Translations under genes and position numbers: made by a program
Shown: positions 30,672 through 54,122 of the stretch, piece by piece
Position numbering within the stretch: position 1 is the stretch's first letter
Layout of the letters: each line of letters starts with the position of its first letter
Notes under the pieces: generated by a model
Seen by the model: the letters and a program-made list of their open reading frames with translations, nothing else
The model's database searches: none
What the model was told of the DNA's origin: nothing
Origin: a phage
Assembly (NCBI GenBank): GCA_025677605.1
Contig: GCA_025677605.1_4110.1
Length of the DNA: 64,000 bases
Direction: 5' to 3' (one strand)

Positions 30672-31262
30672 TCATCCTTGAAAAAATGTTGTAAAGTGCA
30701 TCATATGCTTTTCTTGTGCATTTCTTGAGCCTATTCCCGTCCAATTTCCATGCGGCTTAGGTACTGATGCGGTTTCTTCGAATTCTTTTAGTACTGGATT
30801 ATATGAATATACTTTTCTGTCATTAATGTCATAGCAGTATATTTCAGGATTATCAGTACTGTCAATATACATTTGTACAGCCCATGCAGTACCACCACTA
30901 ACTTGAGTAGGTGAAACCAGTGATGCCATACAATAAACTCTCTCTGTGTTTAAAATTTGATATCTATTACGAGCTAATAGATTATAAACATACGAGCCAG
31001 GTTTAGGTACACGGCGTTGTAATGAATAACATGCCATGTTTAGTTGATGTAGAATAGAACTATCATTCAAAATATAAGATGGGATTTCTAATATAGTACT
31101 TTCATCAACACTATGATTATGATTTTTGAATGAAAAGTTAATTACATTAAAACCATTTTCCATAGCATATAAAGTGAAAAAGCGGTCTGCACCTTGTGCA
31201 CCACCGCTATAAAATGTATTAGTTAATCCCTTGATTGCTTCATCAAGTTCATTTATCGTCAT
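30672..31262 (-). CDS. SLOG/DprA-like Rossmann-fold protein
   Basis: SGGAQGADRFF glycine-rich loop and later SGGTAWAV resemble SLOG-superfamily (DprA/LOG/YpsA) motifs. Weak, motif-only call. Confidence 0.55.
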   Translation of the reverse strand: MTINELDEAIKGLTNTFYSGGAQGADRFFTLYAMENGFNVINFSFKNHNHSVDESTILEIPSYILNDSSILHQLNMACYSLQRRVPKPGSYVYNLLARNRYQILNTERVYCMASLVSPTQVSGGTAWAVQMYIDSTDNPEIYCYDINDRKVYSYNPVLKEFEETASVPKPHGNWTGIGSRNAQEKHMMHFTTFFQG

Positions 31263-32203: not shown

Positions 32204-32445
32204 TATTCTTCCCCTTCTGTACCAGCGGTATCTTGTGCTTGAGCAGCAGCTTCTTCACGTTCTTTGATATCAGCAAGTGCTTTATCAGCAAATTTAACGA
32301 ACTTGGAAACAATTGGTGCTACGTTCACTAGTTCATCAACTTGAAACGCATTACGTGCAACCGCAGATTCCATAATACGAGCAGCGTTGATTAGGTCAAC
32401 TAGGTCTAGGATTACTTCGTCTTGTGCATTGTTTTCAGTACTCAT
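32203..32445 (-). CDS. Hypothetical small acidic protein
   Basis: 80-aa ORF packed in the operon. Confidence 0.5.
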   Translation of the reverse strand: MSTENNAQDEVILDLVDLINAARIMESAVARNAFQVDELVNVAPIVSKFVKFADKALADIKEREEAAAQAQDTAGTEGEE

Positions 32446-32552
32446 ATATTACTCTCCATGTATGTTATTACAATTTCCATTATATCATAGTTAATTGGGT
32501 TGTCCCAATTATAAAATAAAAGAGAACGACGAATCGTTCTCTATATTTATTT

Positions 32553-34019
32553 TTACGAACGTTGGCGTTTTTTGTCCGCTTCATATTCGTAGTGAACAGT
32601 TTCACCAAATGGTGCTACTTTGTTCGGGTTACTGTGAATCACAAACAGTGTTTTACAGTAGTTAGGATCACCCCATGACTGCCACGGTTCACCATCGGTA
32701 AACATGATAAGCTGTTTAGGCTTATAATTGTCATGCTTCATGTGAACCCAAACTGCTTCAAAGTCAGTACCGCCACCACCTTTTACTGGATATTCAAGAA
32801 TCTTACGTTCTTCACCAGTTTTATAATCCATCACAGTATAAACTTCAGTATCAAATGTCATGATACGAATTTTAAACTGCTTGAATTGTTTAGTGATGCC
32901 TAGTACTTCACTGATGAAATCACGAAGCATATCTTCACTGATAGAGCCTGATGCATCGAGTGCAATTGCAATATCAATATCGTCATCTGGTTTCATGCCT
33001 GGGAAGATTGGATTCCCGTAGAATGAACCGTTAGAACCAAAACCAGCACCCCACGAACGGCGGCTTGGGCTTTGATAGGTCGCATCGGACTTCAACCAGC
33101 TACGAAGAGTACGTTGAAGTTTAGAACGCCAGTCAATTTTTGGTTCTTTAAAGTTATTGATCATACGAGCGATTTCAGCAGGAGTACCACCTGCACGAGC
33201 AGCATTCATCATTGCTGTTTTGAAATCGTCCATGTATTCACGTTTTTGTGCTTCAGATGCACCACCTTCACCATCTTGTGGTACATCGTGTTGGTCAATG
33301 GTAGTGCCTTTGCCTTTACCATTTTGGATATCACCAAAAGTACCGCGTGATTTACCTTCACCTTCACCACTACCAGATTGTGGTTGTCCTTCACCTTCAC
33401 CTTGTTCTTGTTTATCTTCTTCTTCTAGAAGAATATAAATCTCTTCTGCGGTCATACCATCATACTTCTTATCATACAACCATTGACTTTGAATCTTACC
33501 AATTTTTTCACGAACAATAATTTGGTTGATTGCATAGTCTGCTGCACGGTTGTATCGTTGTGGATCACGCATCCCACGACGAAGGAAGTGATCGTATGCA
33601 CAGTGAAGAATTTCATGACAGATAACTGCAATCAGGTTTTCATCAGTCAAACCTTCGGTCATTTCTTTCAATTGTTCTTCAGTTACTTCAGGATGCTTCT
33701 CACGAATTGCTTCTTCGTATGCTTCTTTCTTGCTTGGGTCTTGAATACCCATGATAAATTCTACGTTATAGAATAAATGTTTACCATCTACTGCTAAGGT
33801 ACGACACCATGTATTGTTTGCAACTGGACGCAGACGTGAAGCCAGTACACCAAAGAATGGAGCAGTTAACATCAGAGAAGTACGAGCAAGAATCAAACGG
33901 TCTTGGCATTCTTTCTGGAGTTGTGGTGTTACGTCGCTAAATTTCTTATCGGACATGATATTTCCTCGTTTAGTTAAGATAAAAGAAGGATACCATGTGG
34001 CATCCTTCTTGTCAAACAT
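32553..34019 (-). CDS. VWA-domain protein with N-terminal HExxH metallopeptidase-like motif
   Basis: HExxH in AVICHEILHCAYDH; Gly/Glu-rich linker; VWA MIDAS motif DASGS in IALDASGSISEDM. Confidence 0.85.
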   Translation of the reverse strand: MFDKKDATWYPSFILTKRGNIMSDKKFSDVTPQLQKECQDRLILARTSLMLTAPFFGVLASRLRPVANNTWCRTLAVDGKHLFYNVEFIMGIQDPSKKEAYEEAIREKHPEVTEEQLKEMTEGLTDENLIAVICHEILHCAYDHFLRRGMRDPQRYNRAADYAINQIIVREKIGKIQSQWLYDKKYDGMTAEEIYILLEEEDKQEQGEGEGQPQSGSGEGEGKSRGTFGDIQNGKGKGTTIDQHDVPQDGEGGASEAQKREYMDDFKTAMMNAARAGGTPAEIARMINNFKEPKIDWRSKLQRTLRSWLKSDATYQSPSRRSWGAGFGSNGSFYGNPIFPGMKPDDDIDIAIALDASGSISEDMLRDFISEVLGITKQFKQFKIRIMTFDTEVYTVMDYKTGEERKILEYPVKGGGGTDFEAVWVHMKHDNYKPKQLIMFTDGEPWQSWGDPNYCKTLFVIHSNPNKVAPFGETVHYEYEADKKRQRS

Positions 34020-34030
34020 TCTTTTAGTTA

Positions 34031-35356
34031 TTAACCAAGAGAACGTGCTTTGCGTACTAGGTCAGAGTACTTCATAACGAAGTCTTTGAACGCTGGAACA
34101 TCTTTGTACGCAATCGCTACCTTATGTTGAGTGATGGTACGAATTGCTAGTACTGCCAGTTCTGCCTGAGTTTCGGAGAAGTTACGGTCCAGGAAGGTGA
34201 TGAAGTTGTTGCACAGCTTGCCCCACTCTTCAACTGGAAGACGTTGTTCTTGCTTCTCATTGTACAGGTCGATAATTTTATAAACCAGATTCAGAGAGAT
34301 GAAGTAGTTCGCAGAAATATCCAGCGTTGCATCAATCTCTTTAATCTCACCCTGTAGGATGGACATAGTATCTGGTAGTTTAGATACGTTTTCTACGTAT
34401 TCGATATATTCAGTTGCTACACCTTCACCAACACGACCAGCGATTAGAGCACGGAACACTTCTTTATCAATGTTGTTGCCTTTCTTCAGGTCTTCGTAGC
34501 GTGCTACTGCTTCCCATGAACGTGGAGAAGTACCACCACTGTGAGAAGGATCTTGTGGGCTAAGGGTGTTGAAGTACTTAGCACCAGTGTTGTTGATGAA
34601 CGCAACAGTACCTGGGTTCAAACGCTTAGCAATCGCGTAATCGTCAATCCAATCTTGATGGTAAGGAACCATTTCGATGTGGGTCATACGGTCACGTAGT
34701 GGCGTTGCCAGAGAGAACGTTACGCCGCCATCAGTTTCACGGTTACCTGCTGCGAGAATCAGTGCAGTCTTAGGTAGCTTCATCTCACCAACACAACGGT
34801 CGAGGATTAGCTGATAAGACGCTGCCTGTACAATCGGCATAGCAGAGTTAATTTCGTCAAACAGGATAACACCTTTCCAATCTGGAGACAGTTTCAGTAC
34901 TTTAGGTGCTGCCCATACAACTGCTGTTTCAGCGATATAATCTTTAGCTGTTTCCAGTTCAGATTCAATCAGTTGTTTGCCATCCATATCCAGGAACACT
35001 TTTTCAGGGACTGGGATACCACGTAGGTCACTTGGTTCAATCTGTGACAAACGGAAGTCGATGAAGTTAGTGTCTTGGTCAATCAGTTTTGCTTCAAACG
35101 CTGCCAGTTCGCGGCGAAGTGCATCAGCATTTTCAGTATCAACTTCAATTTGTTGTTTCATGAACTCGATTTTAGCCAAGTTATCCTTACGAAGAGGATA
35201 GTTCTCGTCAGCGTATTGACGTGCAATCGCAGACTTACCGATACCAGGGCTACCCCAAATCATCAGACTATCCTGAATTTTATCTGCCAGAGCCATAGCC
35301 ATTTTTGCTTTCTTAGGAGTCAGTTTTACGTTCAGGATATCTTGTTGTTCGCTCAT
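34031..35356 (-). CDS. MoxR-like AAA+ ATPase
   Basis: Walker A GSPGIGKS, Walker B ILFDEIN, ~100-aa insertion between them; immediately upstream of the VWA gene; AAGGA RBS. Confidence 0.85.
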   Translation of the reverse strand: MSEQQDILNVKLTPKKAKMAMALADKIQDSLMIWGSPGIGKSAIARQYADENYPLRKDNLAKIEFMKQQIEVDTENADALRRELAAFEAKLIDQDTNFIDFRLSQIEPSDLRGIPVPEKVFLDMDGKQLIESELETAKDYIAETAVVWAAPKVLKLSPDWKGVILFDEINSAMPIVQAASYQLILDRCVGEMKLPKTALILAAGNRETDGGVTFSLATPLRDRMTHIEMVPYHQDWIDDYAIAKRLNPGTVAFINNTGAKYFNTLSPQDPSHSGGTSPRSWEAVARYEDLKKGNNIDKEVFRALIAGRVGEGVATEYIEYVENVSKLPDTMSILQGEIKEIDATLDISANYFISLNLVYKIIDLYNEKQEQRLPVEEWGKLCNNFITFLDRNFSETQAELAVLAIRTITQHKVAIAYKDVPAFKDFVMKYSDLVRKARSLG

Positions 35357-35421
35357 GTGTATTTTCCTTTTGTTGGATAAAAAACTAGGTTTATATTATA
35401 ACCAATCCGTTGGCAAAAGTA

Positions 35422-35461
35422 AAGGAACTGTGTTAAAAGTATTTTAACTTATCAGTTCCTT
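35422..35461 (-). promoter_or_regulatory. Nested inverted repeat in the 5' leader of the MoxR-like gene
   Basis: AAGGAACTG...CAGTTCCTT outer arms (9 bp) enclosing GTTAAAA-GTA-TTTTAAC. Confidence 0.45.
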
Positions 35462-35523
35462 ATCTTCAGTGAATCATCCGTGTGTTTAAAAAGGTCAATC
35501 TTGTTTGCCGTCTTGATGTGGTC

Positions 35524-35551
35524 ATTATATCACATCGTTCAGGCTTGTCAA
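35524..35551 (-). promoter_or_regulatory. Consensus sigma70-type promoter P1 (TTGACA-16nt-TGaTATAAT)
   Basis: Minus strand reads TTGACA, 16-nt spacer, TATAAT preceded by TG; perfect -35 and -10 hexamers. Confidence 0.75.
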
Positions 35552-35616
35552 CAACTTTTTTTCTTTCTTTTTCAATCTCACATCTTGTGATTTTGAAATC
35601 TTGCTTCGTGACGTTC

Positions 35617-35644
35617 ATTATATCACGTTAATCTGTACTGTCAA
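35617..35644 (-). promoter_or_regulatory. Consensus sigma70-type promoter P2, tandem copy of P1
   Basis: Second TTGACA-16nt-TGaTATAAT about 93 bp upstream of P1, same orientation; flanks also similar. Confidence 0.75.
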
Positions 35645-35708
35645 CATCTTTTTCATTTTTATTTTCGAAGCGTTCTACATATGCATCGAAAATAACTGCT
35701 TGAAATCA

Positions 35709-36053
35709 TCACCGACACAATGTTAATTCAGTAACTACCATTGCGTCGGAGAGATATATGTAGTAGCCATCAACATAATAAGGACTTCTACATATTCTAT
35801 CAAGCGATGTAAATATTATAGAGCTTTTGAACTCTCTTAGCAAGGGGATTTTTGTAAATTCATAAAGATTATTTTCTTCACAAATCATAAATCCATACTT
35901 ACTAAGCCTCAAACCACCACCAGTTCTGAAGTTTTCAAAAATAGACATCAGAAGCATTCTGTCAGTGATTTCAGCGTCCGATTCATGTACTTCTTTAACT
36001 TTTATAAGTACTTCATTTTGAAATTCAGTGCTGTTAGTGGGTTGTGGTATCAT
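35709..36053 (-). CDS. Hypothetical protein
   Basis: 114-aa ORF. Confidence 0.55.
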   Translation of the reverse strand: MIPQPTNSTEFQNEVLIKVKEVHESDAEITDRMLLMSIFENFRTGGGLRLSKYGFMICEENNLYEFTKIPLLREFKSSIIFTSLDRICRSPYYVDGYYIYLSDAMVVTELTLCR

Positions 36054-36458: not shown

Positions 36459-37409
36459 TTACTTATCTCCTAGAAACTTATTGTACTTACTTTGGAGACT
36501 TTCAAAAATGTCTTCTACAGATTCGTCTTCTTCAGACTCTTCTTCTTCAGCTTCGTAAACATTAAGTGGGTTATCACCTAGAGCAGTACCAGGTGCTTTT
36601 GGCTTGAATTCATGTACACGATGTACATTGCCTTCATTATCATATTCTTCTGGATTTGGAACATTGTCAAGTTCTTCTTGAACAACACGTCTCCAGTAGA
36701 ATTGGTTTCCTTTAGGAACTACGATGAAGTTATCACCTTCAACACCATTGGTTTTAGCTTGACCATCTTGAACAGCATCGTATTCAGAACGGAAAGGACC
36801 AAAATCAGTTGTGTCAAGTGCTGGACTCTCTTCTTCTAGACTTAGGTCAGGAAGGATTTGAGATTCAGTAACTTCTTCTTCAATTTCTTCTTCATCTTCA
36901 TCTACTGCTTCAGTAACAGGAAGACCAGCTAGAGACATCATACGACCGAAATCGAATTCTTCTTCAATAACTTCTTCGTCTTCATCTGATAGAGTAGATT
37001 CTAGCTTAGGTTGACCACTCATGTCAAGAGAAAGTTCATCTTCTTCACCAGGAGCTTCAACATCGATAACTGGAATGTCAGCTTCACCTTCTGCATCAGC
37101 ACCGAAATCAGTTACTGAACCAGATAGATCATCAACAGCTTGTGCTAGTGGGTCTTCTTCACCAATTTCTGGAACAGGTGCTACATCAGCACCCATTTCT
37201 GGAGCAACAACTTCTGGTTCTTCCGCTGAACCACCAAAAGAACCGAAGTCAAGTGGAGCGATTGGAGAAACAGTAGGTGCTACGGATGATTGCTTTTCAG
37301 CTTGACCAGCTAGTGCAAGCATACGGGATAGTGCTTCTAGATCATCAGATTCTAGACCAGCAATATCAATTTTAACCTGTGCTTCATTAATTTTTTTTGC
37401 CATTTTCAA
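36459..37409 (-). CDS. Highly acidic low-complexity protein (scaffold or internal-protein-like)
   Basis: 316-aa ORF with long E/D runs; AAGGA RBS. Confidence 0.65.
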   Translation of the reverse strand: MKMAKKINEAQVKIDIAGLESDDLEALSRMLALAGQAEKQSSVAPTVSPIAPLDFGSFGGSAEEPEVVAPEMGADVAPVPEIGEEDPLAQAVDDLSGSVTDFGADAEGEADIPVIDVEAPGEEDELSLDMSGQPKLESTLSDEDEEVIEEEFDFGRMMSLAGLPVTEAVDEDEEEIEEEVTESQILPDLSLEEESPALDTTDFGPFRSEYDAVQDGQAKTNGVEGDNFIVVPKGNQFYWRRVVQEELDNVPNPEEYDNEGNVHRVHEFKPKAPGTALGDNPLNVYEAEEEESEEDESVEDIFESLQSKYNKFLGDK

Positions 37410-37422
37410 TAAATCCTTTTAG

Positions 37423-38895
37423 TTATTCATCATTATTATTTAATGATTTTAAAATCTGCACTACTTCATCTTTATTACCAGCTAATAGAATGTCAGCGGC
37501 TAGTAAAGAAACCTTATCACCACGGGTTAGCAGTACTGTAATCTTTTTCGCATAAGGAGAAGATTTAATTTGTGATGCAAGTGCTTCCATACCATTCCCT
37601 TGCTCAACTTCTGGTTCAGGGGTCGGTTCTGGTTTAGGCTCTTCCTTTGGTTCTTCTTTCGGTTCAGCCTGTGCTTCAGGTTTAGGTTCTTCTTGTGCTT
37701 TTGGTTCTTCTTGTGGTGCGTCATTTGGTTTAGGTTCATTCTCTGATTTAGAAGATTCAAAACGATCCAGAATAGCTTGTGCAGCACTTTTTGGAATCAT
37801 TTTACCATCTGGACCAATGAATCGATCACCACCAACGTATACATATTCTTTACCTTTCTTAGAAGTAACTTTTGTTCCGATTTTCATTGCACCGGATTCG
37901 TTATGTTTAAGAATAGCTTGTTGTGCAGCACGCTCAATACTTTGTGCAGCACCTGAATTTAATTGTTTTTTAGTTTCAACATCAAACCAAGCACCACGTT
38001 GTTTAGCATAAGTTTTGTTTTTACCAGAAGTAAAACGGTATCCATCTGGTACACCAACTGCTGGTTCATCTTCAGCTTCGGTAACTTTTTCTGGCTTCTG
38101 TACAGAACCAAAACGTTGTTCTTCACCAGTACTAGCACCAGTTAAAGAAGGGAAATCTTCAGGATTTGCCTTAACGAACTGTGAATATGCTTGGAAAATA
38201 GCTTTCGAGCCTTGTTCAGATACTACCACATTACCGTCATTATCGCAAAATTCTTTACCGTTCCATTCAGAACGAACATTACCTTGAATCAATACAGATT
38301 TCAATGGGATTAGCTTATTGTTTGTAGATAATTGGCGAGCAATGCGAAGACCTTCTTCACTTAGCTTACGTGTCATTTCTGGGCTTACAGGGCGACCGCT
38401 TTTTAGTTCAACAAAGCGATGACTGTTAGGAATAAACTTATATCCTTGAACTACCATACCTGCTGGGATAGAAATATCTTGTGCATGTGGGGGTAGAATA
38501 TAAAATTTCAAAGTACTCCACTCTTTTTGTAGAGTTTCTTTGGAAACTTGATATACACGTTGTTCATCACCCATTAGTTCTGTAATCACTTCACTTTCAG
38601 AAAGAATAGTACCGTCATCACTATGGAAGCGGCTTTCACCGATGAACGTACACTCTTTTCCATTGTGAAGATAGTTTTCGCCAATTTTAAATGCAGTGTT
38701 TGATTTATTGTTGTGCTCAACAATTTGTTGTCGAGCACAAGCATACATATTTGGATATTTTTGTGGATCAACCATCATCATATTACTATCATTGAACCAC
38801 ATACCTTCTAAGAAGACATATTTTGCTCCAGTATGGGAAGTATAGATATACCCATTAGGAACTACCGTACTTTCAGTACTGAATAATTTAAGCAT
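37423..38895 (-). CDS. Hypothetical protein with Pro/Glu/Lys-rich repeat linker
   Basis: 490-aa ORF; central EPKPEAQAEPKEEPKEEPKPEPTPEPE low-complexity stretch. Confidence 0.7.
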   Translation of the reverse strand: MLKLFSTESTVVPNGYIYTSHTGAKYVFLEGMWFNDSNMMMVDPQKYPNMYACARQQIVEHNNKSNTAFKIGENYLHNGKECTFIGESRFHSDDGTILSESEVITELMGDEQRVYQVSKETLQKEWSTLKFYILPPHAQDISIPAGMVVQGYKFIPNSHRFVELKSGRPVSPEMTRKLSEEGLRIARQLSTNNKLIPLKSVLIQGNVRSEWNGKEFCDNDGNVVVSEQGSKAIFQAYSQFVKANPEDFPSLTGASTGEEQRFGSVQKPEKVTEAEDEPAVGVPDGYRFTSGKNKTYAKQRGAWFDVETKKQLNSGAAQSIERAAQQAILKHNESGAMKIGTKVTSKKGKEYVYVGGDRFIGPDGKMIPKSAAQAILDRFESSKSENEPKPNDAPQEEPKAQEEPKPEAQAEPKEEPKEEPKPEPTPEPEVEQGNGMEALASQIKSSPYAKKITVLLTRGDKVSLLAADILLAGNKDEVVQILKSLNNNDE

Positions 38896-54094: not shown

Positions 54095-54122
54095 AAGGGA
54101 CAGAATTAATCTGTCCCTTTAT
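54095..54122 (-). terminator. Intrinsic terminator
   Basis: GGGACAG-AATTAAT-CTGTCCC hairpin followed by a U-tract on the minus-strand transcript. Confidence 0.65.

Follow-up and report, generated by a model that had tools for sequence, protein, structure and literature searches.

A jumbo-phage MoxR-class ATPase and metallopeptidase-like VWA protein of the N4 gp24/gp25 family lie behind strong promoters and a conserved terminator-like leader

We analysed a 64,000-nucleotide stretch of phage DNA (the window; contig GCA_025677605.1_4110.1 of NCBI GenBank assembly GCA_025677605.1) in which two adjacent genes on the minus strand encode a MoxR-class AAA+ ATPase and a second protein, here called the adaptor, that joins a zincin-like HExxH region to a VWA domain with a metal ion-dependent adhesion site (MIDAS). 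In a nucleotide search the 3.35-kb region that holds them is 99.6% identical to Escherichia phage A4 (ON286972.1), a 355-kb Asteriusvirus of the RaK2-like jumbo myovirus group, and matches 35 more RaK2-like genomes at 80–90%. Phage A4 annotates the genes as A4_560 ('ATPase') followed by A4_561 ('VWA domain-containing protein'). An initial annotation, made from the letters of the window, had proposed a co-oriented MoxR–VWA gene pair at this place, and the open reading frames (ORFs) are found there, at 35356–34031 (−) and ending at 32553 (−). The adaptor gene begins 74 nt past the ATPase gene on the same strand, an adjacency kept in RaK2-like, N4 and POP15 phages. A long block of virion structural genes lies upstream of A4_560, and four small unknown genes and thymidylate synthase lie downstream of A4_561. 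This gene order is identical in RaK2, CBB, Erwinia phages, GAP32 and 18 IMG/VR loci, and the pair is found in every RaK2-like genome sampled, at 54–93% identity. The features of the locus, in the order in which they would be transcribed, are as follows.

35617..35644, minus strand: promoter P1, TTGACA-16 nt-TATAAT with a TG extended −10 and an A-rich UP-like tract upstream
35524..35551, minus strand: promoter P2, TTGACA-16 nt-TATAAT with a TG extended −10 and an A-rich tract upstream; tandem duplicate of P1
35471..35483, minus strand: single-stranded GGA motif (ACACGGAUGAUUC) 5' of hairpin 1
35413..35461, minus strand: hairpin 1 (HP1) and its T-rich tail, nested stems at 35461–35422, resembling an intrinsic terminator or attenuator
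35402..35413, minus strand: hairpin 2 (HP2), a covarying stem of 4–5 bp with a conserved (C/U)GGA loop, CCAA-CGGA-UUGG in A4
35395..35423, minus strand: P3, a weak promoter-like site (TTTACT-17-TATAAT) overlapping HP2, in Asteriusvirus only
34031..35356, minus strand: MoxR-class AAA+ ATPase of 441 aa (A4_560; N4 gp24 family; phrog_1297), assigned by motifs, fold and homology
35254–35231 and 34867–34847, minus strand: Walker A and Walker B of A4_560, with a helical-hairpin insertion at ~35200–35089
33973..34010, minus strand: terminator-like 12-bp hairpin (34010–33983) and T-rich tail between the ATPase stop and the adaptor start
32553..33956, minus strand: HExxHxxxxH and VWA/MIDAS protein of 467 aa (A4_561; N4 gp25 family; DUF2201_N plus DUF2201; phrog_1314), assigned by Pfam and motifs
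33617–33588 and 32957–32943, minus strand: HEILHCAYDH and DASGS motifs of A4_561
32521..32542, minus strand: predicted intrinsic terminator (AGAGAACGATTCGTCGTTCTCT plus TTTTATTTTAT) ending the two-gene unit

The ATPase carries GSPGIGKS at residues 35–42 and ILFDEIN at residues 164–170, the two motifs first noted. G38, K41, S42, D167, E168, N205, R223 and R279, which represent Walker A, Walker B and candidate sensor or arginine residues, are invariant in 25 homologues. Because the MoxR-type Pfam models fall below their curated cut-offs (AAA_3, PF07726, 17.7 bits against 27; AAA_5, PF07728, 15.1 bits against 22), the protein is assigned to the MoxR class through transitive homology and predicted fold only; the generic Pfam AAA model scores 21.0 bits against a cut-off of 21.2. 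Relatives at ~32% identity do match AAA_3 (9/25), AAA_5 (10/25) and bpMoxR (4/25) at E ≤ 1e-3, and PHROG 1297 ('ATPase') matches A4_560 itself at E 6.5e-106. With an AlphaFold2 model (predicted local distance difference test score 82.8) as the query, the best Foldseek matches in the PDB are NorQ chains from the hexamer and the NorQD complex (E ~1e-6; template modelling score 0.55–0.6 on the target), followed by a second MoxR ATPase, CbbQ2 (6l1q), and then by McrB and clamp loaders. Sequence searches against the PDB, with single sequences and with profiles, gave Walker-A-level matches only for the ATPase and none for the adaptor. The insertion between Walker A and Walker B, previously put at ~100 aa, is ~58 aa relative to the N4 and Bas54 homologues and comes in two pieces, a 38-aa helical hairpin (residues ~56–90) and a beta-hairpin extension of ~20 aa.

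The adaptor most likely starts at 33956, as annotated in A4, and not at 34019, the start of the longest ORF, because a conserved hairpin fills 34010–33983, a GAGGA Shine-Dalgarno sequence precedes 33956, and homologues align from there. In the resulting 467-aa numbering, HEILH occupies residues 114–118 and DASGS residues 334–338, the latter as part of a full MIDAS site. PF13203 (DUF2201_N, 'putative metallopeptidase') scores 126.1 bits (cut-off 23.2; E 2.6e-36) and is followed toward the C terminus by PF09967 (DUF2201, VWA-like) at 73.9 bits (cut-off 26.4; E 1.6e-20), the combination given as COG3864, 'predicted metal-dependent peptidase'. In 21 homologues, down to ~42% identity, the zinc-site residues H114, E115, H118 and H123 are invariant, as are the MIDAS residues D334, S336, S338, T397 and D421. 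In structure searches the C-terminal domain matches the VWA folds of integrin I, NorD and the midasin MIDAS domain. By Pfam and fold searches, then, the initial domain calls for both proteins were correct. Database records commonly label the DUF2201_N plus VWA protein an 'HNH endonuclease', among them PHROG 1314, RaK2, CBB, N4 gp25 and many Asteriusvirus entries. Pfam and PHROG profile searches detect no HNH domain in A4_561; judged by sequence the label is an inherited error, which seems to trace to an old annotation of a Roseovarius phage. An NCBIfam scan of the pair returned noise only.

By sequence homology the protein pair is not new but is the gp24/gp25 family of phage N4 (Schitoviridae). 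In BLASTP the A4 ATPase matches N4 gp24 at 28% identity (E 1e-27) and the A4 adaptor matches gp25 at 26% identity (E 5e-30); annotations of RaK2 and K64-1 already name the proteins N4 gp24-like and gp25-like. The N4 genes share the order and adjacency of the A4 genes, are homologous over most of their length and are also non-late, being counted among the 14 core genes of N4-like phages and carried on middle transcripts (PMC4193335). N4 gp25 resembles the A4 adaptor in its DUF2201_N and DUF2201 domains and in its HExxH and MIDAS motifs, and the same two domains occur in Bas54_0055 and in Thermus phiFa_30. Three differences set N4 apart. Its gp24 has 352 aa, compared with 441 in A4, where the ~58 extra residues form the helical hairpin and the longer beta-hairpin; the A4 adaptor contains additional helices and an acidic linker rich in Gly and Glu; and the N4 genes are served by promoters that depend on N4 RNA polymerase II, whereas those of A4 are of the host sigma-70 type. 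The ATPase has relatives in 823 phage records, among them those of N4-like, rV5-like, Certrevirus and Thermus phages, and adaptor cluster representatives number 14,711 at E ≤ 1e-3 and 8,001 at E ≤ 1e-10. N4 and POP15 carry the two genes side by side; a gap of ~1 kb separates them in Thermus phiFa and one of ~3.6 kb in Vequintavirus. In N4 and Vequintavirus (the Bas54 and Murica loci) the MoxR ATPase gene lies within a few kb of rIIA/rIIB. A 'homing endonuclease' near the ATPase gene of Pseudomonas phage Cassandra was considered as a VWA partner and rejected as a real nuclease. The RaK2 paper makes no mention of these genes, and the CRISPRi-ART and transposon-mutagenesis papers do not cover the family.

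P1 and P2 belong to a 93-nt tandem duplication and are the sole perfect matches to TTGACA-16-TATAAT with a TG extension in the window (0.30 expected; two are reached in 3 of 100 shuffles). They are also the only 12/12 sites in a consensus scan, and their earlier description as the strongest promoter signal of the window holds. Their 16-nt spacer is 1 nt below the 17-nt optimum, and by sequence they qualify as sigma-70 promoters. The window contains 18 TGnTATAAT elements against 6.5 ± 2.6 expected, with 16 of the 18 on the minus strand and 13 reading TGATATAAT; because of this excess we take the extended −10, on sequence grounds, to be the general promoter core of the phage. In the window P1 and P2 alone have this core together with both a perfect −35 and UP-like tracts rich in A. 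The counterpart of P1 reads TTGACA-16-TACAAT in G17/121Q and TTGACA-16-TATAAT in WPEC3, and the P2 core is near-identical in G17 and WPEC3, so that both promoters are retained in three Asteriusvirus lineages. RaK2 has one such promoter; in other clades GGGACA or TGAAAC(G/A) replaces TTGACA and TGnTATAAT is kept. The promoter of the pair in the CBB clade is of the TGAAACG class, and the CBB authors linked the TGAAAC(G/A) motif to DNA-synthesis genes. P3, which is not conserved outside Asteriusvirus, has possibly arisen by chance. An ORF of 50 aa at 35466–35618 (−) spans the P1–P2 interval with its ATG in the −10/+1 region of P1; it is not conserved in G17 and is probably not a gene.

These promoters bear on when the pair is made. 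In RaK2-like phages the early promoter class is presumed to be of the sigma-70 type (PMC5259590), and a T4-like late motif was not seen when the leader sequences were inspected by eye. With the middle expression of the N4 homologues, non-late timing is plausible; the early expression first proposed stays that of a presumed class. No RNA-seq data for Asteriusvirus were found in the literature.

Between the promoters and the ATPase gene lies a leader that we compared across 16 non-redundant loci from Asteriusvirus, Alcyoneusvirus (RaK2), Mimasvirus (CBB), Eneladusvirus (Erwinia), GAP32 and metagenomic relatives. All 16 share one order of elements: a TGnTATAAT promoter, a 5' GGA region, HP1 with a T-rich tail, HP2, ~40 nt, and a Shine-Dalgarno sequence with ATG. 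A GGA stands at the equivalent place 5' of HP1 in 15 of 16 relatives; any function of this motif is conjectural. HP1 has nine stem pairs, three of them with double-sided changes, and 95% of cells are paired across the 16 sequences. The HP2 stem differs between clades (CCAA/TTGG, TCAAA/TTTGA, GCTTA/TAAGC, CTCAA/TTGAG and TCAGA/TCTGA) around an invariant GGA. For the two hairpins together, 93.5% of cells pair compared with 81.2% in shuffled alignments (0/500 shuffles reach the observed value), six pairs show double-sided change, slid controls give 18–52% pairing, and a model-based realignment agrees. RNAalifold independently predicts HP1; run on the aligned leaders, it does not predict the short HP2. 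A covariance model of the leader finds exactly one copy per RaK2-like locus and zero copies in the N4, Murica and Bas54 loci. A search with Rfam 15 over 32300–36000 gave as its best match an unrelated small nucleolar RNA at 22.7 bits against a gathering score of 40. The inverted repeat that the initial annotation placed in the leader is thus real and exact at 35461–35422; its description needs the correction that the repeat is terminator-like and is followed by TTTACTTTT and then by the second conserved hairpin.

HP1 appears to belong to the terminator repertoire of the phage, because the next-best covariance-model matches in the window, at 54120–54080 and 50076–50035, are ordinary terminators without HP2. 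Those two hairpins (both on the minus strand) share with HP1 the sequence pattern AAAGGnnnnGAU...UCnnnnCCUUUUCUU, which suggests a common terminator type in this genome. An ARNOLD terminator is annotated at the HP1 equivalent in phage G17. A terminator scan of the window missed HP1, whose nested loop exceeds 8 nt. The U-tract of HP1 is interrupted (TTTACTTTT); its stem is supported by covariation. HP1 has the GC-containing stem and T-tract of promoter-proximal terminators and attenuators. In two Erwinia phages whose leaders are otherwise near-identical, the HP1 loop of one is the exact inverse of the other (GAAA in one, TTTC in the other), with the stem the same.

In an alternative reading of the cis-elements, P1 and P2 would mainly make short RNAs of ~100 and ~195 nt that end at HP1, whether as a small RNA or through attenuation alone, and the ATPase–VWA mRNA would arise only by read-through or from the weak P3. 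This is possible but on balance unlikely, and it is compatible with any function of the proteins. Pointing toward it are the terminator shape of HP1, the presence of TGnTATAAT ~20–110 nt 5' of HP1 in all clades, and a leader that folds better than shuffled sequence (z −2.47). However, the T-tract is interrupted, no Rfam family matches, and the stretch from the transcription start to HP1 is poorly conserved apart from short motifs; moreover, P3 is absent outside Asteriusvirus, where full termination at HP1 would leave the genes with no promoter.

The geometry of CsrA dimer sites is an A(N)GGA in a short hairpin loop with a second GGA upstream. The A4 leader resembles such CsrA/RsmA sites, having A(N)GGA in the short loop of HP2 and a second GGA 45–65 nt upstream, but this is resemblance and not membership: in the CBB clade the Shine-Dalgarno sequence lacks GGA, and again no Rfam family matches. 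A tblastn search found no phage-encoded CsrA in Escherichia or Klebsiella RaK2-like phages, so a CsrA link could only involve the host's own CsrA, whose action on this leader is speculation. Two other explanations of the conserved elements were rejected. A leader peptide is suggested by an ATG that overlaps the 5' GGA motif in several phages, but its ORF varies from 2 to 34 codons and is absent in one locus (L009). HP2 as a protein operator on DNA is at odds with a stem whose sequence varies while its complementarity is kept.

A GC-rich hairpin with a T-run also occupies the intercistronic position in all 15 loci examined, for example GGGGCATTATGCCCC-TTTTGTTTT in CBB, and the terminator scan calls both this hairpin (34010–33983) and the one that ends the unit (32542–32521), which is annotated in G17 and keeps its position in all clades. 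Since terminator-like hairpins follow the promoters and separate the genes, expression looks gated rather than simply driven. The earlier statement that two promoters drive the pair is right that both consensus promoters are present and too simple in passing over the conserved terminator-like hairpin between them and the ATPase gene. The operon wiring conserved in all RaK2-like clades, comprising the leader and the terminator-like intercistronic hairpin, is what is new here as read from the alignments, and these are modest new observations.

Evidence on function comes from Bas54, identified by its locus tags and the run of taxids as phage MaxBurger (MZ501093), a Vequintavirus and the only source of a genetic phenotype in the family, for which saturated transposon libraries are described in the 2025 HIDEN-SEQ preprint (bioRxiv 10.1101/2025.11.20.689424). 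Its bas54_0063 ('MoxR ATPase') matches the A4 ATPase at 25% identity (E 3e-35), without the A4 insertions, and bas54_0055 ('putative metallopeptidase') matches the A4 adaptor at 28% identity (E 7e-50) with the same two Pfam domains. On K-12 both genes are non-essential, with 60/64 and 81/86 TA sites disrupted, respectively, compared with zero TA sites in head and tail genes (bioRxiv 10.1101/2025.11.20.689424). On the clinical isolate CFE311, mean insertions in bas54_0063 fall from 148.7 to 0.0 (log2 fold change −7.23, adjusted p 0) and those in bas54_0055 from 219.7 to 47.2 (log2 fold change −2.20, ~4.6-fold, adjusted p 0.009). According to the text and the legend of Fig. 4e of the preprint, plaque assays of a bas54_0063 knockout show that the gene is required against DS-28, a cloned two-gene predicted system (bioRxiv 10.1101/2025.11.20.689424). 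We found nothing more on DS-28 in the literature. In supplementary file 9 (Data S6/S7) of the preprint, the sheet 'K-12_vs_CFE303' holds the same CFE311 comparison, in command line and numbers, as 'K-12_vs_CFE311', and specificity for CFE311 over CFE303 cannot be read from it.

In that lineage these data speak against assembly as an essential function and favour a role that is host-specific and probably one of counter-defence. The anti-defence reading of the A4 pair made at the outset gains partial, indirect support from homologues that are dispensable on K-12 and depleted on CFE311 and from the reported DS-28 result; what carries it over to A4 is homology at 25–28% identity only.

We favour, with confidence evenly poised between acceptance and doubt, a reading in which the locus encodes a machine of the N4 gp24/gp25 family that is directed at the host, acts by remodelling or proteolysis, and is conditionally important, expressed early or in the middle phase, and placed under strong but attenuated promoters. 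The locus would be a self-contained early/middle transcription unit for a MoxR AAA+ ATPase and an adaptor that fuses zinc-metallopeptidase-like and VWA/MIDAS domains. By analogy with NorQ–NorD, CbbQ–CbbO and RavA–ViaA, an ATPase hexamer would dock the VWA protein, the MIDAS site would grip an acidic residue of a target protein, ATP hydrolysis would remodel that target, and the fused HExxH domain could cleave the target or the adaptor itself. The target would most likely be a host protein and the pay-off a neutralised host defence system, as the Bas54 transposon and knockout data suggest, and the module would be conditionally and not universally required. Transcripts from P1 and P2 would meet the terminator-like HP1 and then the GGA loop of HP2 before the ATPase gene, so that expression could be tuned after initiation: the attenuator may throttle the strong promoters, and the GGA hairpin may be recognised by a nuclease or by a regulator that binds RNA. 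If transcription stopped in part between the genes, the ATPase would be made in excess of the adaptor, as would suit a 6:1 complex such as that of NorQD, where a hexamer binds one VWA protein (PMC13036017).

A different role was proposed for what is very probably the same pair, likened here by description and not by accession. Iyer, Anantharaman, Krishnan, Burroughs and Aravind (2021; PMC7824862) describe a MoxR ATPase with a vWA protein bearing an N-terminal metallopeptidase in group 2.2 jumbo phages and, by analogy with the MoxR–VWA pair of Acidianus two-tailed virus, propose that it acts in virion assembly and proteolytic processing. The pair would fold or assemble structural proteins and the peptidase would trim them. 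Its position is in keeping with this, directly 3' of the virion structural gene block on the same strand in every RaK2-like genome. Mass spectrometry of purified phAPEC6 virions also detected the ATPase (gp265c, 49.5 kDa; 6 peptides, 19% coverage; PMC7247149). Because the adaptor is missing from that virion list and thymidylate synthase is in it (PMC7247149), the signal suggests that abundant soluble proteins were carried over. Promoters of the sigma-70 or middle type serve the pair itself, with the leaders showing by eye no T4-like late motif, and the N4 homologues are middle genes that sit among replication and nucleotide-metabolism genes. In Bas54 the homologues tolerate insertion at >93% of TA sites on K-12 and head and tail genes at none. 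Pfam and PHROG profiles assign neither protein to a known virion-assembly role, and PHROG places neither family in its structural category. The promoter class and the Bas54 data thus point away from an essential assembly role, and we consider a virion-assembly function unlikely.

The likeness to bacterial MoxR–VWA pairs raises another alternative, in which the A4 proteins insert a metal or cofactor into, or otherwise activate, an enzyme, as in NorQD, CbbQO and CobST, the client perhaps being a phage or host enzyme of nucleotide metabolism. All well-studied MoxR–VWA pairs mature or activate metalloenzymes (PMC13036017, PMC9976466). NorQ–NorD, CbbQ–CbbO and RavA–ViaA are likewise encoded as paired genes, and the predicted A4 folds match NorQ, CbbQ2 and NorD. 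Thymidylate synthase is encoded nearby in A4, as is dCTP deaminase in N4, and early/middle timing would suit nucleotide-metabolism genes. However, no client enzyme is consistently linked to the pair across phage families and no metalloenzyme client is evident for A4; NorD, CbbO and ViaA lack the N-terminal HExxH domain of the A4 adaptor, whose invariant HExxHxxxxH is not part of known metal-insertion systems; and the Bas54 phenotype is host-specific and not a general growth defect. Maturation of a metalloenzyme is, in our judgement, very improbable.

Several points weigh against the host-directed machine that we favour. Its support comes from distant homologues only, A4 and the RaK2-like phages being read from sequence, and identity to the Bas54 proteins is low. 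The Bas54 genes lie ~3.6 kb apart on opposite strands and form no operon, the RaK2-type leader is absent there, and the adaptor is far less depleted than the ATPase, so their action may not be strictly joint. The Bas54 data come from a preprint, and DS-28 has the status of a predicted system only. HP1 and the intercistronic hairpin are predicted from sequence to terminate transcription. Searches with the adaptor fold returned VWA matches only, which filled both lists, and the N-terminal metallopeptidase fold is unsupported structurally. PADLOC-DB gave zero matches for either protein. The ATPase was, as noted above, detected in phAPEC6 virions. Counter-defence genes are typically accessory and patchy in distribution. 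This pair is not patchy, being core in N4-like phages and conserved across RaK2-like genera.

A bolder form of the host-directed reading, which we regard as rather doubtful, is that the N4 gp24/gp25-type module is an ATP-powered, MIDAS-targeted protease, made of unfoldase, adaptor and zincin, that dismantles host immune proteins. Its dose in RaK2-like jumbo phages would be controlled by a leader not described before, in which a promoter-proximal terminator is combined with a GGA-loop hairpin; the leader would sense a host factor (e.g. CsrA) or a phage factor, and the intercistronic terminator would fix the ratio of ATPase to adaptor. The pair is among the most widespread phage gene sets lacking a mechanism: N4-like phages have it as a core set, and RaK2-like, rV5-like and many other phages carry it too. 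The family is large and its mechanism unsolved, and the present finding does not discover it. A firm link to counter-defence would account for a sizeable share of phage 'dark matter' and would extend the known inhibitors, which are mostly stoichiometric, by a strategy of energy-dependent remodelling or proteolysis, and if the protease reading were true the pair would form a new mechanistic class of counter-defence. Should the pair instead prove to be an assembly factor, the 2021 prediction would be settled. The A4 locus is a convenient test case: the operon is compact, its catalytic residues are clear, its promoters are very strong, and its conserved RNA elements lead one to expect measurable attenuation and a fixed stoichiometry.

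The surroundings of the pair offer some further observations. The next gene downstream (80 aa; 32445–32203, minus strand) has its own promoter, TTGGGACAA...TGATATAAT, and the −35-like TTGGGACAA recurs in the window, at 32487 and 62404. The GGAG Shine-Dalgarno sequence of this gene lies in the loop of a small hairpin, UACAUGGAGAGUA (window 32440–32510, minus strand), kept as ATACATGGAGTGTATA in all other clades, where the promoters are of the TGAAACG...TGGTATAAT type; it is a second case of GGA(G) shown in a hairpin loop. Upstream of the pair, the 'structural proteins' encoded at 36459–38895 (−) are extremely acidic or of low complexity, including a D/E-rich protein of 316 aa and a 490-aa protein with EPKPE-type repeats. 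Beside thymidylate synthase, a 196-aa protein (30672–31262, minus strand) shows a weak SLOG/YspA match (Pfam E 7.5e-4, below threshold) and a DprA-like match (phrog_768, E 4e-25).

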